A stretch of DNA of 36,004 nt from an uncultured virus (IMG/VR IMGVR_UViG_3300046474_000019) (Duplodnaviria > Heunggongvirae > Uroviricota > Caudoviricetes): IMG/VR virus record IMGVR_UViG_3300046474_000019; one strand, given 5' to 3'. Numbering within the stretch: the stretch's first letter is position 1; the number at the start of each line of letters is the position of its first letter. The notes under the pieces are model-generated. The model had not been told where the DNA came from. It was given only the letters and a program-made list of their open reading frames with translations, and ran no database searches. This document shows, piece after piece, positions 14,537-21,030 of this stretch. The position numbers were made by a program, and so were the translations under genes.

Positions 14537-14824
14537 TTACAAGGAAAGAAGCTTCTCGGCTGTAGCGGCGGGGATGGAGTACTTCGCAATAAGGGCTACC
14601 ATTTTCAGACGGGTGTACCCTTTATAATAGTCAGCGGCAGCCATTGGGCTGGTAAACTTTCCAAGATAATGTTGCTTGTTGTCTACGTCCGTGGTCTTTA
14701 CAAACCAATGCTTACCTGTGTAGCCAACACCCTGCTTAGAATTGTAACACTTTAACAGTTGATTAACGGCATTTGCCACACCATCCACACCAGCCGTTGG
14801 AGCTTGAACAGGGTTCATTCGCAT
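14537..14824 (-). CDS. Stand-alone AP2-like DNA-binding domain protein
   Basis: GVGYTGKHWFV...KQHYLGKFTSPMAAADYY. Confidence 0.55.
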   Translation of the reverse strand: MRMNPVQAPTAGVDGVANAVNQLLKCYNSKQGVGYTGKHWFVKTTDVDNKQHYLGKFTSPMAAADYYKGYTRLKMVALIAKYSIPAATAEKLLSL

Positions 14825-15043: not shown

Positions 15044-15165
15044 ACGGGTTCTCCTTTGATATAAGATTGCATCAGTGTTTTGAAGTTGATTACAACGTCA
15101 GGGTACTTCTCTTTGTACGCACGCACATAGGCTGTCCAGCCTGTTGTAGACTCGCCCTTCACCAT
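15040..15165 (-). CDS. Small hypothetical protein (not in ORF track)
   Basis: MVKGESTTGWTAYVRAYKEKYPDVVINFKTLMQSYIKGEPV fills the gap with overlaps at both ends. Confidence 0.55.
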   Translation of the reverse strand: MVKGESTTGWTAYVRAYKEKYPDVVINFKTLMQSYIKGEPV

Positions 15166-15362
15166 TCACACCCACAGTGCGTCGGGTGCCCTTGAGGCAT
15201 TGTACAGCCTTTAGAAGGCTTACGACATGCGTATGGAATCGCAAACTCTACTACAACTTCAATATCCATATTTGGATAGAGGTCAAGGATATGGTCTACA
15301 GCCTCTTTAGCTTCCTTCAGACCACAGCCAGCCCTTTCCCGTACACTCTTGATTGCCATCAC
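15159..15362 (-). CDS. Ribosomal protein bL12 (L7/L12) C-terminal-like protein
   Basis: AIKSVRERAGCGLKEAKEAVD resembles bL12 IKxVRxxTGLGLKEAKxxVE. Confidence 0.6.
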   Translation of the reverse strand: MMAIKSVRERAGCGLKEAKEAVDHILDLYPNMDIEVVVEFAIPYACRKPSKGCTMPQGHPTHCGCEW

Positions 15363-15622
15363 TTTCCAGATACATAGGGTGTTGGATGTGGTATCATGTG
15401 CTTCTCACTCTCGATGGCGAGTACTAAGGAGGTGAGTAACTGAAGAGCTTTCTCTTTATTGGCGTGCTGACTCCGCTCACTGTCACAGCTTACACCAATA
15501 CCAGAAGGTATATGATGCACGGTGATACCACTGGTGGTAAGTCCAACGGTCATTCCGCCAGCTCCGTGTCCAGACTGAGGGAGGTAGCTGGTGATTCGTA
15601 GATCATGTGGGTTAAGCATCAT
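15359..15622 (-). CDS. Class I release factor domain-3-like protein with GGQ->GGM
   Basis: GAGGMTVGLTTSGITVHHIPSGIGVSCDSERSQHANKEKAL vs RF [40 protein letters not shown]; GGAG RBS. Confidence 0.8.
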   Translation of the reverse strand: MMLNPHDLRITSYLPQSGHGAGGMTVGLTTSGITVHHIPSGIGVSCDSERSQHANKEKALQLLTSLVLAIESEKHMIPHPTPYVSGK

Positions 15623-15791
15623 CGTCTCCGTAGTAGAGGATTTCTTCAAACTCATTGCCAAAGTTTTCCAGCACTGCCTCATTGAACCAGCGACTAGCAC
15701 CAGCAGGACAGAGCTTTCCGCACTCAGCAAGGGCAGCATAGAAGTTATTGTACTGGGTTTTCTCTTTCAGTGCAAGCTTATGTTCTGTCAT
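15612..15791 (-). CDS. Hypothetical phage protein
   Basis: ATG 15791 (MTEHKL...), coupled to neighbours. Confidence 0.6.
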   Translation of the reverse strand: MTEHKLALKEKTQYNNFYAALAECGKLCPAGASRWFNEAVLENFGNEFEEILYYGDDDA

Positions 15792-16105
15792 TTGATTACT
15801 ATATACCCCTCTGGAAATGGTTTGTTGTGGTGCTTCCGTGCTAGCCTGTCGATTGTATCCTCGTAGAGAAACTTCCACTCTTGGTCGCACATGTAGCAGT
15901 GGTACTCACGTGAGCGTTCAGCAAAGTAGTTTGGGTAGTATGTGTGGTCACGCACTGCTAGGTGCGACTCTGGGTGTGGACACGTTTTACGCAACTCGTA
16001 CACTGCATTACGAGCTTTCCGTGCAACCTCTTCCAATCGTCCATGCTCGCCATTGCGAAGCAACTCTTGCCCTTCGTAATAATCTGGTCCACTAACTTGT
16101 GTCAT
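15788..16105 (-). CDS. Hypothetical protein with CPH...CxxC Zn motif
   Basis: KTCPHPE...YHCYMCDQEW. Confidence 0.65.
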   Translation of the reverse strand: MTQVSGPDYYEGQELLRNGEHGRLEEVARKARNAVYELRKTCPHPESHLAVRDHTYYPNYFAERSREYHCYMCDQEWKFLYEDTIDRLARKHHNKPFPEGYIVIK

Positions 16106-16605: not shown

Positions 16606-16781
16606 TCTAGTCCCTCCGTTAAGCCCCAAGCTTCCAGTTCAGCGTAGAGCGAAGTGTTAAACGTCTTGACCGGGGAGATATACGTGCGAGCATACTCCCT
16701 GATCGTTTCATTCATGGGTTGTTCAAACCAAGGCTCTGGTTCTTCCGCACCACAAAGAGGGCAGATGCTACCAGTAGCCAC
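16593..16781 (-). CDS. Hypothetical phage protein
   Basis: GTG after GAGAGGA in the 16593..16991 ORF; CPLC motif. Confidence 0.5.
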   Translation of the reverse strand: MATGSICPLCGAEEPEPWFEQPMNETIREYARTYISPVKTFNTSLYAELEAWGLTEGLECQQ

Positions 16782-17139
16782 GATCCTCTCCCGGTGCACA
16801 ATATTTAGTGGAGACACTGGTGCTGTAGCCATTGGAGGTTCCATACCAGCGAATCCAAGCGTAACCCTCGTCCGTGCGGATAGTGTAAAACGTCCACTCT
16901 TCCACATCGCCGTACTCACTATTACGATCTTTGTTGCTAGACACTTCACACTCAAACCAGACAGCACCCTCAAGGGAGCAAGAAGAATCAATATCCTCTA
17001 TGGATACAGACTCACAGCAGTCTTGGCTATGCCACATGTGGAAGCTAGAGCCGTCTTCAAAGGTGATGGTAACAGAGTCACTACCATTGTCAAGGCCATC
17101 AACACCAACAATCACTTTACCGTAAAATTCTTCGCTCAT
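16768..17139 (-). CDS. Conserved acidic phage protein
   Basis: HSQDCCESVSIEDI...WTFYTIRT.EG...IRWYGTSNGYS; AGGAG RBS. Confidence 0.75.
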   Translation of the reverse strand: MSEEFYGKVIVGVDGLDNGSDSVTITFEDGSSFHMWHSQDCCESVSIEDIDSSCSLEGAVWFECEVSSNKDRNSEYGDVEEWTFYTIRTDEGYAWIRWYGTSNGYSTSVSTKYCAPGEDRGYW

Positions 17140-17196
17140 TATACTCTCCTTTGTAGTGTGAGAGCAGGAAACCTGCTCAATTTTTCACGCGGTCGC

Positions 17197-17541
17197 TTAG
17201 GCGATGATATCATCCCAAGGCACAGCCACCATATTGAAGTCTGCGTATGGAATCAGGTGTTCCACTGCCTGTCCAAGGTCGTTGTAGGTGCTGTAAGACA
17301 CCATTTCACCAGTCCACTGTGTATCAGGGAACCAGTTACTCCAAACTCGGGTGCGTACACCGTAAGGCAAGCCTTTTGGCAGTGCGAAGGTGAGAGTGTT
17401 GAACATTGTTGCCTCAGCCAGCACCAGCGGAACATCTTGCACGTAGAAGTTGATGCTTTTGGCCTTCATCACATCGTCAAGACGATAATCAGAGATTTGA
17501 CCAGTTGGTCTGCAAGAAGGGCCGTCATATCCGTAGAACAT
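17197..17541 (-). CDS. Hypothetical phage protein
   Basis: AGGAG RBS, 114 aa. Confidence 0.7.
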   Translation of the reverse strand: MFYGYDGPSCRPTGQISDYRLDDVMKAKSINFYVQDVPLVLAEATMFNTLTFALPKGLPYGVRTRVWSNWFPDTQWTGEMVSYSTYNDLGQAVEHLIPYADFNMVAVPWDDIIA

Positions 17542-17568
17542 TGTGTTTCTCCTATGGGTTTATATACC

Positions 17569-17592
17569 AAGAAACCCCGCCGAAGCGGGGTT
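17569..17592 (-). terminator. Rho-independent terminator after terD
   Basis: AACCCCGC-TTCG-GCGGGGTTTCTT on - strand. Confidence 0.8.
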
Positions 17593-17599
17593 GGGTGTG

Positions 17600-18175
17600 T
17601 TACGCGAAAGCTTTTAGCACTTGGTTCGGGTTAGCAGCAGCCGATTCACCCATTGGTTGGAAGCCCCAACCGTCTGCTGTACGTTGCAGAGTACCAACAT
17701 GCAGAGCAGTATGGTTGACAAACTGTTGCAACTTGTACTCGGCCAGCAGCTTGTTGTCCTGATCGTATAGCTTGAAGCTACCACCGCTGATCATACTCAG
17801 GTCTTGCTGGCGATCTACCGCATCGTGCAAGAAGACGAAGTGTTCAACCTTGTCAATGTGAGCAGGAATCTTGGTGATGTCTACGAGAATTTCTTCGTCG
17901 TCTTGGCCTGCAACGTCAGCACCATTACGGTTATCACGTGGCAGAACAACAGCACCGTTGTAGCAGTCTTTGTTGTTGAAGAAGCAAACGTTCTTCATAT
18001 CACCTTTGATGCTACCGTTGCTGGTCAGGAACATGAAGATGTCAAGGTCAAATTCATGGCCTTTGCTTGCCATCGGGTGCAGTTCCCAGTTCAGAGCGCC
18101 ACGCAGGCGGGTCAGCGAAGGGGAAACTTTGGTCAGGTCCAACATCAGGGTATCTTTGCTCAAGTTAAGCTCCAT
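17600..18175 (-). CDS. terD: TerD-family stress protein
   Basis: FDLDIF, VCFFNN, DNRNG...DDEEILVDITKIPAHI, W.FQPMGE. Confidence 0.9.
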   Translation of the reverse strand: MELNLSKDTLMLDLTKVSPSLTRLRGALNWELHPMASKGHEFDLDIFMFLTSNGSIKGDMKNVCFFNNKDCYNGAVVLPRDNRNGADVAGQDDEEILVDITKIPAHIDKVEHFVFLHDAVDRQQDLSMISGGSFKLYDQDNKLLAEYKLQQFVNHTALHVGTLQRTADGWGFQPMGESAAANPNQVLKAFA

Positions 18176-18236
18176 TATAAAATCCTCATTTTAGTGTTTG
18201 GTTGAGGGGCCATTGTGCCCCTCTTTTGGTTTAGTG

Positions 18237-18917
18237 TCAAGCAGTCTTTGCGATGAACTGTTTGTTTACGAAGGCGAACGCTACAACAGTCAGGCCACCA
18301 ACAACTTTAGCCAACAGGTGGTTCACTTCGCCAACATGAGTGATGAAGAATGGATCAGAGATCAACATTTCAGCACCAACTACACCCAACATTGCAGCAC
18401 CGATCCAGATGATGATCTTGAAACGATCCATCAAGCCCGACAGGTATTTCGCACCGTAGACAATGATTGGGATGCTCAGAACGATACCAGCGATTGCGTA
18501 CAGAGTCGAATGAGCGCCAGTGTTAGAAGCAGCACCAGCTACAGCCATTACGTTGTCCAGCGAGAGCATGAAGTCCGCTACGATGATAGTCCAGACAGCG
18601 CCCCAAATCGAGTCTTTCTGTGCAACTTCGTGTGGCTCATCGTGACCAGTCAACAACGAGTAGCCGATGTAAACCAAGTACAGACCAGCAACCAGCTTCA
18701 GGAACGGCACGCCCAAGAGGAACGTTGCAAACACCAGCAGGACAGCTCGCAGTGCAATGGCACCAGCAGTACCCAGCAGGATTGCCTTACCTCGTACACT
18801 TACCGCCAACGAGGCACATGCCAGAGCGATTACGATTGCGTTGTCAAGGCCGAGAAGCAAGTCGATCATCATGATCTTGAAGATTGCAACCCAGTCCAAC
18901 ATTGCGAAAAATTCCAT
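18237..18917 (-). CDS. terC: TerC-family integral membrane protein
   Basis: IDLLLGLDNAIVIALA, IIVADFMLSLDNVMAVAGAA; multiple TM helices. Confidence 0.9.
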   Translation of the reverse strand: MEFFAMLDWVAIFKIMMIDLLLGLDNAIVIALACASLAVSVRGKAILLGTAGAIALRAVLLVFATFLLGVPFLKLVAGLYLVYIGYSLLTGHDEPHEVAQKDSIWGAVWTIIVADFMLSLDNVMAVAGAASNTGAHSTLYAIAGIVLSIPIIVYGAKYLSGLMDRFKIIIWIGAAMLGVVGAEMLISDPFFITHVGEVNHLLAKVVGGLTVVAFAFVNKQFIAKTA

Positions 18918-19198
18918 TATTTAGCCTCCAGTGCTTCGATTTGTGCCAAAACGGTCAGTACATCTTCATCCGACAGGTGCCCAATAACATCATTGGTAAT
19001 CGGTGTAGAGTAGTCCAGATGGAACTCAGTGTCGTTAACGAAGGTGAGCACTGCCAGTTCCCAGAGCCCTTCGTCGTAGCCGTAGGTAGTACCAAAAAAT
19101 CCTACGTTAGGTGCTCGTACCACCGAAGCGCCGTACCCATTTTCAAACTTGTGAACAACTTGAGTACCGCCGTTCAGGTCGCGAGTATAAAGTTCCAT
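18917..19198 (-). CDS. Conserved phage protein
   Basis: FENGYGASVV...GLWELAVL...TPITNDVIGHL; AGGAGG RBS. Confidence 0.8.
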   Translation of the reverse strand: MELYTRDLNGGTQVVHKFENGYGASVVRAPNVGFFGTTYGYDEGLWELAVLTFVNDTEFHLDYSTPITNDVIGHLSDEDVLTVLAQIEALEAK

Positions 19199-19224
19199 GT
19201 ATCCTCCTTTGTTTGTGTTGGGCT

Positions 19225-19253
19225 ATCTTACTAAGGATAGCCCATCGTGTCAA
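19225..19253 (-). promoter_or_regulatory. sigma70 promoter with inverted repeat overlapping -10
   Basis: TTGACA-17-TAAGAT; TGGGCTATC..GATAGCCCA. Confidence 0.8.
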
Positions 19254-19256
19254 CGT

Positions 19257-19907
19257 TTATTTGGTTGCGAAAGCCTTGAACTCTTCGTTCAACAACAGCT
19301 CATAGAAGCGGTTCTGGTCTACAGCCTTCGGATTCGGGATGTACAGCACTTCAACAGTGTCGTACTTGGCCCCGATCATGTCCAGATAACGCTTATCAAC
19401 GCCGTTGCCGATTGCCACGATCTGTACGAAGGTGTTCTCCAGCGAATCCAGTTGAGCTTCGAAGTCACGCTGGTCGTTGTTCTGACCATCAGTGATGAAG
19501 CCGATGTAAGTTGGGGTTGCTACCTTAGCAGGTCCAAAACCGAACAGCCCACGTTTGGTTGCACTACCTTTCAAACCCTTGATGGCATCTGCGAAGTTGG
19601 TGCCGCCACCAGCGGTGATACGGTGTTTACGGACGTACAGGCCGTGGTCGTCAATAGTTGCATCTGGAGTGCGGTCAAAACTGGTGTTGAAGAAACCAAT
19701 CTCCATCTTACCGTCATCGTCAAACTTCATGGCAGCAGCCAAGAATAGGTCGATAGTGTCTTGTACCCAACCGCAGCGGAACTCGTCGTCCATGCTACCA
19801 GATTTGTCTACAGCCAGCTTAACGGCCATAGTGATTGGTGTGAAAATCTGAGCCTTTTCGAGATTCAGTTCCAGCGATTTGGTCAGGTCTAACATTGGCA
19901 TACCCAT
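19257..19907 (-). CDS. vWA-domain protein (ter-associated)
   Basis: MIDAS DKSGSM, GGTNF, FITDG, FVQIVAIG. Confidence 0.9.
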   Translation of the reverse strand: MGMPMLDLTKSLELNLEKAQIFTPITMAVKLAVDKSGSMDDEFRCGWVQDTIDLFLAAAMKFDDDGKMEIGFFNTSFDRTPDATIDDHGLYVRKHRITAGGGTNFADAIKGLKGSATKRGLFGFGPAKVATPTYIGFITDGQNNDQRDFEAQLDSLENTFVQIVAIGNGVDKRYLDMIGAKYDTVEVLYIPNPKAVDQNRFYELLLNEEFKAFATK

Positions 19908-19929
19908 ATATCCTCCTTTGGATTAAGTT

Positions 19930-21030
19930 TTAGATTGTACCGGAAGCTTTCAACGCCGTCAACAGTGATTTTTGCCCCTCTACAATCTGGATTGCTTCTT
20001 GTTCACGTTTGGTTTGAGCATCAGCTTCAACCCGTTTCACTTCCACTACGGTTTCCATTACACGGTTACGTAGTATTTGAAGCGTGTCACTTGTGATCAC
20101 CGGGGTGTTCAAGGCTTTAGCGCTTTCAACGGCAGCCATCTTAGCACCGTCAGCACCTTTGATCAAGGTTTTTGTTGCCAAAGTTCGCACCTCGTTTGTG
20201 AGTTTGATACTCTTCTGGCTATCCACTGTTTGGATGTACAGGGCAAACTCCATCTTGACGATAGGAATAGTCTGACTGATGATATCCTTCAACGTGCTGA
20301 TAGTCACACGACTGGTGTCCTGCTGCTGACGAATCTTCGGGCTATTCAGCTCGGTCATCGCCTTCAGGCGGATCAAGTTGTCATGCTTCATACGCAAGCG
20401 GTTAAGCTTGGCTTCAGCATCACGTGTCTGCTGAATAGCCATCGCAGCGGTTGGGCTGCTCAGGTCAATCTCAGGCCAGTTCTTAATCTGGTTCTCTACA
20501 TAACTGATCAGACGATCAGTCTCGCCCATTTCAGCAACGATCTTCTGGTAGTGGTTGAAGTTTTCATTATATAGAGACTCCAAGTCCTTCACCCACTCTT
20601 GCTGGGTAGTGATGTGCGTACCGATCTTACCTTCCAGATTGTCGAACACTCCTTGAGCGCTCTTCAGCCGCATGGTGAGAGTGGCCTTCACGTCAGTAAA
20701 CTTGTTCTGCATCCAGCCGATCATACCACCCTTTTGCAAGGAAGCCGGGTCGAGCTTGTCCACTTCGCCAGTGATCTGGGTCAGGATTGCACCCAAGTCA
20801 TCAAACTTACCAACGACCATTTTGTCAATAATCTTCTGAGTGGTTTGACCAATCTCACGGCTCACGTCTTCACCGATCTTATCAATGTCAGCGTCCGTGA
20901 CGATCAGGTTTTGCATTGGTGCAATCTGAGACTGCTGTGTAGCAGCCGGAAACATGCTTGGTTTTGGCGCTGCTGGGGCGAAGCCAACATTCACAGCGTC
21001 CTTGACACCAGCTTTAGCGAACAAACTCAT
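19930..21030 (-). CDS. TelA/KlaA-like toxic anion resistance protein
   Basis: 366 aa coiled-coil, DDLGAILTQI...LDP, TIPIVK; ter context. Confidence 0.75.
   Translation of the reverse strand: MSLFAKAGVKDAVNVGFAPAAPKPSMFPAATQQSQIAPMQNLIVTDADIDKIGEDVSREIGQTTQKIIDKMVVGKFDDLGAILTQITGEVDKLDPASLQKGGMIGWMQNKFTDVKATLTMRLKSAQGVFDNLEGKIGTHITTQQEWVKDLESLYNENFNHYQKIVAEMGETDRLISYVENQIKNWPEIDLSSPTAAMAIQQTRDAEAKLNRLRMKHDNLIRLKAMTELNSPKIRQQQDTSRVTISTLKDIISQTIPIVKMEFALYIQTVDSQKSIKLTNEVRTLATKTLIKGADGAKMAAVESAKALNTPVITSDTLQILRNRVMETVVEVKRVEADAQTKREQEAIQIVEGQKSLLTALKASGTI

Follow-up and report, generated by a model that had tools for sequence, protein, structure and literature searches.

A phage gene joining a release-factor catalytic domain with a GGM loop to an L12-like module, split by a one-base deletion

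The locus described here lies on a 36,004-nucleotide stretch of DNA from an uncultured Caudoviricetes virus (IMG/VR record IMGVR_UViG_3300046474_000019), referred to below as the window. Two short minus-strand open reading frames, ORF1 and ORF2, are the subject of the analysis, and the features within and around them are as follows.

15626..15629, minus strand: GGAG, a Shine-Dalgarno-like element 3 nt and 6 nt ahead of two ATGs, read from the sequence
15359..15622, minus strand: ORF1, 5' portion of the split gene, encoding 87 aa (86 aa if started at the second ATG, 15619) with the catalytic domain 3 of RF1 type
15551..15559, minus strand: GGM codons GGC GGA ATG, residues G22, G23 and M24 of ORF1, read from the sequence
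15362..15368, minus strand: frameshift site, window sequence CTGGAAAGTGATGG
15159..15362, minus strand: ORF2, 67 aa, 3' part of the split gene, with an L12-like three-helix module and a Cys/His tail
15294..15356, minus strand: bL12 alpha4-alpha5-like motif AIKSVRERAGCGLKEAKEAVD, from alignment to bL12 chains and to PF00542
15162..15227, minus strand: Cys/His-rich tail CRKPSKGCTMPQGHPTHCGCEW, modelled with low confidence; the family has two alternative Cys-rich tails, of which this is one
19930-21030, minus strand: TelA (PF05816, E 1.5e-22)
19257-19907, minus strand: vWA-TerF-like gene (PF10138, E 9e-22)
17600-18175, minus strand: TerD (PF02342, E 7e-32)
16768-17139, minus strand: DUF7448 protein (E 7.5e-21), in the same gene block as ORF1 and ORF2
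17093-17066, minus strand: promoter-like site, a consensus-level hint
14537-14824, minus strand: 95-aa ORF matching phrog_953 (HNH endonuclease) at positions 298-370 of 420 only (E 1e-7)
14511-14491, minus strand: terminator-like hairpin after the 95-aa ORF, a consensus-level hint

The gene belongs to a minus-strand block made up of small genes without an assigned function, located downstream of TelA, the vWA-TerF-like gene and TerD and bracketed by the promoter-like site and the terminator-like hairpin, both of which are hints at the consensus level. In related genomes no more than 2-3 kb separates this block from the end of the genome, with its direct terminal repeat. The start of ORF1 overlaps the 3' end of an upstream ORF (15612..15890), and the second ATG, at 15619, is the likely initiation codon because GGAG sits 6 nt upstream of it. 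No tRNA or tmRNA gene was found within the window, nor any RtcB-like or Pth-like neighbour among the ORFs scanned around the gene. The Ter-type gene set (17600-21030) occupies the same strand as the release-factor-like gene, and phage VCM likewise has a TerC-family gene nearby. On the plus strand, a 326-aa ORF at 16654-17634 is probably not a gene, because it runs antisense to three minus-strand genes with PHROG matches.

ORF1 encodes a catalytic domain of the class-I release factor type. It matches the Pfam RF-1 family (PF00472) with an E-value of 1.3e-15 and 57.8 bits against a cut-off of 35, and its best match among solved structures is domain 3 of E. coli RF1 (residues 217-286, E 4e-12), so that RF1 (PrfA) is its closest sequence relative; weaker matches were obtained to RF2 (1e-10), PrfH (4e-6) and C12orf65 (1.6e-5), and ArfB chains gave E-values of 0.7-0.76 with no stretch passing. 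The original prediction, made from the letters of the window alone, that this 87-aa frame carries release-factor domain 3 is thus confirmed. Its statement that a codon-recognition domain is lacking holds as well: RF-1 and Ribosomal_L12 were the only Pfam domains detected in the window ORFs and their full-length relatives, which, unlike RF1 and RF2 with their PCRF domain and codon-reading motif, contain no Pfam match to PCRF or to the codon-recognition domains (RF domains 1, 2 and 4).

ORF1 shares with E. coli RF1 the beta-strands of the domain, the ERSQxxNK start of the helix and the GG of the catalytic loop, and the alignment pairs M24 with the Q of GGQ. The GGQ tripeptide itself is not found in this loop, where GGM is present instead, as had been read from the codons GGC GGA ATG at 15551-15559. 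The loop also departs from those of cellular release factors in a 3-residue insertion before GG, in the change of GGQHVN to GGMTVG and in the loss of the Arg of SA[VI]R. Whereas RF1 has GGQ followed by HVN, the phage protein therefore has GGM followed by TVG, preceded by the insertion, and in addition a C-terminal half that is new.

ORF1 by itself is incomplete. The best PHROG match of ORF1, phrog_35727 (162 positions, E 7.5e-41), is covered at positions 1-74 only, and ORF2 matches the same profile at positions 98-122. P0006, a 153-aa protein encoded on a 97,508-nt contig, is 100% identical to ORF1 over 99% of the length of ORF1, and its sequence is that of ORF1 followed by V and by ORF2. Contigs from four runs (X1-X4) were compared over window positions 15100-15900, a segment of 801 bases. 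X2, X3 (depth 1872) and X4 have an extra C behind 15365 on the plus strand, corresponding to an extra G on the minus strand, and show 0 further differences from the window across the 801 bases, whereas X1, a 97,907-nt contig that is probably the source of the window itself, lacks the extra base. The intact coding strand reads TCT GGG AAA GTG ATG (SGKVM) within one continuous 153-aa ORF; that of the window reads TCT GGA AAG TGA TGG, with the TGA stop overlapping the ATG of ORF2 (TGATG). The window allele is a 1-nt deletion in a run of G (GGG to GG), which results in the stop at 15359-15361. From this comparison of contigs we lean towards a real variant rather than an assembly slip in a single sample, because three-G runs are not error-prone in Illumina-type short reads (the library type of the runs is unrecorded).

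The junction is read through in 18 of 18 related loci examined, and this also bears on whether the split could be programmed, with ribosomes shifting by -1 at U GGA AAG, ahead of the TGA, so as to join the two ORFs and allow regulated expression. A tRNA-Lys slipping by -1 from AAG to AAA would yield exactly the SGKVMAIK junction of the fused protein, and the stop codon comes directly after the slip site. The heptamer is imperfect, however; GGGAAAG or GGAAAG is conserved in none of the 18 related loci, all of which are plain continuous ORFs, and the unshifted form occurs in three of the four runs with otherwise identical DNA. Programmed frameshifting is accordingly very improbable, and we rejected it as the cause of the split on the grounds that the 18 related loci are continuous and the GGGAAAG string is not conserved. 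With the deletion, the window genome can at most produce the halves as separate polypeptides, through re-initiation at TGATG or a rare -1 slip. The description of ORF1 as a minimal protein was not borne out, since it is the frameshift-truncated front of a two-domain gene of 153 aa, and the framing as a minimal mimic should be dropped.

Relatives of the gene, 131-159 aa in length, are carried by Otagovirus phages of Pseudomonas, including PN09, phiPsa347, VCM and others, and the gene annotated as 'peptide chain release factor 1' in phiPsa/VCM-type genomes is the same gene. The family set assembled here comprises 57 distinct sequences, several of which are near-duplicates and hence not all independent. 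An L12-like motif is present in 44 of the 57, a tail of the form MPQGHP[ST]HCGC in 8 and one of the form CxC...RxGC[YFH]xW in 21; this second Cys tail occurs without the L12 motif in 4. By these patterns 9 of the 57 have neither motif nor tail, several of them consisting of the release-factor domain only. Among these 9, P0073 has a different C-terminal part, and the sequence of P0025 stops within the L12-like motif, so that it may be an incomplete sequence and not a form that lacks the module. In an alignment of 24 members, with 48-75% identity to its first row (P0006), the release-factor domain is the more conserved half of the protein: loop residues G17, G19, A20, G21, G22, V25 and G26 are conserved at 90% or above, and the HHxPxGxGxSCDSERS block is invariant or nearly so.

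A phmmer search against 1.84 billion representatives returned 3416 matches at E <= 1e-3 but 15 at E <= 1e-10, and the family is therefore small and distinct. In a tree that still contained the GGM/Q columns, the phage sequences form one clade relative to cellular release factor fragments (support 100/99), and by this phylogenetic evidence the N-terminal half is shown to descend, as one phage clade, from cellular class-I release factors. The ESM Atlas gave top scores of 0.76, to short viral RF-1-domain clusters, which serve as leads only. Such short viral RF-1-domain proteins fall into phrog_20323 and phrog_35727, the window gene belonging to the latter; the entries carry no tested function.

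The original prediction had proposed to tabulate the residue after GG among homologs, and took uniform GGQ to mean a sequencing error or a decaying allele. The homologs are not uniformly GGQ. GGM is the majority state, found in 43 of the 57 family sequences (including P0011, with GAGGMSVG), against GGQ in 6; in 5 the called ORF begins at the M, and in 3 the loop is degenerate: Ep020 (L017; GASGM), P0043 (AHGNCSW) and P0034 (loop lost in a deletion of about 11 residues). All three keep the rest of the release-factor domain, the L12-like module and the Cys tail. M and Q together thus account for 49 of the 52 sequences in which the loop region was called. GGM was found in 12 of the 15 isolate loci fetched, the exceptions being Ep020 (SGM), Boevelstad (GGQ, a 77-aa stand-alone form) and Y1, which lies outside the family, and in 5 of 6 IMG/VR loci. 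The Y1 locus (L020; OQ572403.1, an 'UNVERIFIED' Pseudomonas phage) was a tblastn match to a 300-aa ORF resembling a full cellular RF2 with GGQ, unlike the phage family, and may represent host DNA in the record. When 179 proteins were aligned to ORF1, 141 had GGQ, 31 GGM, 6 started at the M and 1 had HGN; those of the 141 GGQ rows that were inspected are cellular RF1 or RF2 or their fragments. GGM extends to distant members at about 50% identity.

That GGM might have arisen by faulty sequencing or might signal a pseudogene in decay is scarcely credible: the window copy does carry a disabling frameshift, but the ATG codon occurs in 12 independently sequenced isolate genomes and 5 of 6 IMG/VR loci, the release-factor domain is under clear purifying selection, and the error reading is refuted by these loci together with the 57-sequence tally.

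To follow the exchange of M and Q, a tree of 54 rows and 70 columns was built with the GGM/Q columns removed. M and Q require 6 changes on it, 5 within the family, and well-supported branches alone force at least 4; an AU test rejects a single group of all GGQ rows (p 0.0006). The tree comes from a short alignment and leaves many forks unresolved, and recombination of alleles could mimic repeated mutation. M and Q coexist among close relatives (P0016 versus P0014; P0021 and P0024 versus P0017), and a change from ATG to CAG or CAA needs at least 2 base substitutions. Because both states persist in close relatives and almost no other residue occurs, our reading is that the position is probably constrained to a long unbranched side chain, which would fit a loop that still enters the peptidyl-transferase centre. 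Two functional states that can replace each other would explain this pattern better than a decoy that has lost its activity. The earlier interpretation of a catalytically altered mimic consequently stands in one part only: GGM is real and predominant, but the ORF on which it was based is truncated, and the repeated exchange of M and Q suits an inactive decoy less well.

In its intact form, the 153-aa protein is composed of an RF1-type domain 3, a variable Pro-rich linker, a three-helix L12-like module and a Cys/His tail. ORF2 matches Pfam Ribosomal_L12 (PF00542) with an E-value of 9.7e-5 and 23.1 bits, below the cut-off of 25.9, and covers positions 10-38 of the 67-position profile only (about 29 of 67). 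Relatives reach 24.8-29.5 bits (E 1e-5 to 9e-7), for example 29.5 in VCM, 28.0 in P0036, 26.3 in PN09 and 25.6 in phiPsa347, and the cut-off is exceeded in VCM, PN09, P0036, P0043 and P0181. In a six-frame search of the 99-kb PN09 genome, the sole PF00542 match was this gene, at 26.5 bits and above the cut-off. The L12-like segment of ORF2 also matches phrog_26927 (94 positions) at positions 17-49 with an E-value of 4e-5, and judging by this match the module may occur on its own in other phages. A word-index search with the C-terminal region returned 4 family members and was uninformative on the module in other contexts.

Residues 3-23 of ORF2, the motif AIKSVRERAGCGLKEAKEAVD, pair with residues 68-88 of E. 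coli L12, and the equivalents of K65 and V66 lie just upstream of the motif in the fused form, at the junction GKVMAIK. In the L12 C-terminal domain (CTD), V66-V68, K70, L80 and E82 are described as contacting the G' subdomain of EF-G (PMC5887453), and the same source cites Helgstrand 2007 for the binding of IF2, EF-Tu, EF-G and RF3 to this one region. Of these factor-contact residues, V66, K70, L80 and E82 are identical in the phage protein, and V67 and V68 are not. The likeness to the bL12 CTD is therefore one of the alpha4-turn-alpha5 motif (KVxxIKxVRxxxGxGLKEAKxxV), including its reported GTPase-contact residues. It does not extend to the whole protein: the bL12 CTD consists of three helices and three strands, whereas the phage module is modelled as all-helical, without beta-strands, and in place of the N-terminal dimerisation and L10-binding domain and the hinge of bL12, the phage protein has its RF-1 domain.

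An AlphaFold2 model built on 24 family sequences (mean pLDDT 73) predicts residues 84-133 as a three-helix bundle with pLDDT of about 96, the best-modelled part of the protein; the release-factor domain reaches pLDDT 50-80 only, and residues 148-153 fall under 50, the last residues being disordered. Foldseek against the PDB with the whole model gave no match at E <= 1e-3, and the weak rows above that value included 1ctf (L12 CTD) and EF-Ts in EF-Tu:Ts complexes. A wide structure search covered residues 80-142 of the model only. It returned RuvA domain III at Z 6.9, a generic small helical bundle under Z 8, and UBA and EF-Ts N-terminal domains at Z 4.4-5.0, likewise below the Z 8 at which small bundles become informative; the EF-Ts-like matches were 1xb2_B (Z 5.0, rmsd 1.6 over 43 residues) and 1aip_C (Z 4.5), both under Z 8. 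No UBA or EF-Ts Pfam domain was found in the window ORFs and relatives at E-values up to 10. Taken together, alignment and model indicate that the module is the alpha4-alpha5 factor-binding hairpin of bL12 combined with a different third helix, giving a predicted UBA-like or EF-Ts-N-like bundle rather than a whole bL12 CTD. A resemblance between this bL12 hairpin and the N-terminal domain of EF-Ts, which binds helix D of EF-Tu, was reportedly recognised many years ago; our literature search for a paper linking the EF-Ts/L7-12 motif with helix D of EF-Tu found none. A complex prediction for the module (A1 residues 78-140) with P. syringae EF-Tu gave a score of 0.01 and a mark of 0.32, which weighs neither way.

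The tails that follow the module are of two mutually exclusive Cys-rich types, MPQGHP[ST]HCGC and GYCxxGxxCxCGGDxxxxRxGC[YF]xW, which are shuffled among close relatives (P0018, P0022-P0024, P0007, P0011, L003 and others); in some members the second comes straight after the release-factor domain, with no L12-like module between them. No Pfam family matches either tail, and we would guess that they may bind metal or RNA. The absence of a basic ArfB-like tail, noted for ORF1 at the outset, needs qualification: the C-terminal half is indeed neither ArfB-like nor basic, acidic and basic residues being roughly balanced in P0006 by inspection of its sequence, but a tail does exist, made up of the L12-like module and the Cys/His segment.

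Among known systems, the closest in plan are ArfB (YaeJ) and ICT1, in which a lone GGQ-type domain is joined through a flexible linker to a C-terminal module and codon recognition is absent; the arrangement of catalytic domain, linker and C-terminal module is described for ArfB in PMC3950681. The resemblance is one of architecture, and sequence kinship with ArfB was not found (E 0.7, versus 4e-12 for RF1). Moreover, ArfB and ICT1 have a basic C-terminal helix for the mRNA channel, whereas the phage protein has the L12-like bundle and the Cys/His tail. PrfH (RF-H), a truncated paralog of release factors that is reported in PMC9304027 to rescue damaged ribosomes independently of stop codons, matches the phage protein weakly (E 4e-6). 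PrfH, however, keeps GGQ where the phage protein has GGM, and no RtcB-like gene corresponding to those of the RtcB-PrfH modules lies among the scanned neighbours of the phage gene.

The explanation we favour, while holding it tentatively, is that the window carries a split copy of an Otagovirus-like gene for a codon-independent A-site factor that docks through its L12-like module and has GGM as a working variant of GGQ. On this view ORF1 forms the first half of an early gene in an Otagovirus-like Pseudomonas phage, and the protein would act on host ribosomes without reading codons, by analogy with the logic of ArfB and ICT1. The loop of the release-factor domain would reach into the peptidyl-transferase centre, and the L12-like module, replacing an ArfB-type basic tail, would attach either to a translational GTPase or to the side of the ribosome where factors bind. 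Stalled or non-stop ribosomes could in this way be freed for phage translation. Most substitutions of the Gln side chain in GGQ retain substantial activity in vitro, this side chain mainly selecting water as the nucleophile, and Met cannot be methylated by PrmC. Because hydrolysis is described as being catalysed by the backbone amide of the Gln (PMC6742477), Met is similar in size to Gln or methyl-Gln, and PrmC would be unneeded, GGM may be a tolerated variant, probably still catalytic and PrmC-independent, and we infer that Met could mimic methyl-Gln. A gain for phages from hydrolysing peptidyl-tRNA on jammed ribosomes is considered in PMC7824862. Conversely, the altered neighbours of the loop (TVG, the lost Arg and the 3-residue insertion) could abolish catalysis, and catalysis may be dispensable, because the degenerate-loop members Ep020, P0043 and P0034 keep the L12-like module.

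The serious rival to this codon-independent factor is essentially the original prediction, according to which the GGM domain fills the A site and peptidyl-transferase centre as a non-catalytic mimic and acts as an inhibitor, a host shut-off factor or a decoy. We regard it as unlikely, though it accounts for a loop that departs from canonical release factors beyond the Q and for degenerate-loop members that retain the remainder of the protein, and inactive release-factor relatives such as Dom34 and MRPS35 are known elsewhere (listed in PMC6514570). If the side chain were indifferent, however, many residues would be expected at the position where M and Q make up 49 of 52; the GG and the loop are nearly invariant, and the recurrent exchange of M and Q resembles two equivalent functional states.

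A more specific version of the favoured explanation, which we consider doubtful in this full form, is a hybrid factor in which the RF1 domain is coupled to a bL12-derived handle for EF-Tu, EF-G or RF3 and GGM provides PrmC-independent and codon-independent release; the GTPase handle would serve in delivery to the ribosome or in recycling from it. If true, bacterial viruses would have an equivalent of the logic by which eRF1-eRF3 and Dom34-Hbs1 operate.

Less probable still is that the protein is a stalk mimic, its L12-like module competing with bL12 for EF-Tu, EF-G, IF2 or RF3 so as to sequester or redirect these GTPases, with the release-factor domain as a ribosome anchor only. The motif does retain the bL12 residues named as factor contacts; 44 of 57 sequences carry the module, and no other part of the protein is modelled with higher confidence. 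Against this, 13 of the 57 sequences are without the module, including 4 with the Cys tail only and several with the release-factor domain only (P0025 being perhaps incomplete), and it is the release-factor domain that is better conserved than the C-terminal half.

The family itself was already known, as phrog_35727 and under the annotation 'peptide chain release factor 1'; the GGM loop and the fusion to an L12-like module appear to be new, being undescribed in the papers found. The genome paper PMC8622976 lists the gene in a table without comment, and neither a GGM variant of a release factor nor a fusion of RF-1 with L12 is described in any paper that our literature search found. In the main text of a survey of release-factor evolution (PMC6514570), the terms 'phage', 'L12' and 'GGM' are absent, although its supplements might list such proteins.

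A natural family that keeps GG, mostly carries Met and swaps M and Q amounts to an evolutionary experiment on the Gln side chain and its methylation. To our knowledge, peptide-release factors are taken to have GGQ without exception, and a release-factor-like GGM protein is of real interest to specialists in translation. The fusion of a release-factor domain with a bL12-derived motif suggests a new way to bring a release domain to the ribosome, and if the protein does act in early rescue or manipulation of host ribosomes, it would add a class of phage factors for translation take-over or counter-defence. Phages of this kind are already used as biocontrol agents against Pseudomonas syringae. Two further sequences of the representative library, P0040 and P0044, are release factors of 477-481 aa with PCRF and two separate RF-1 stretches, which represent a duplicated or interrupted catalytic domain.
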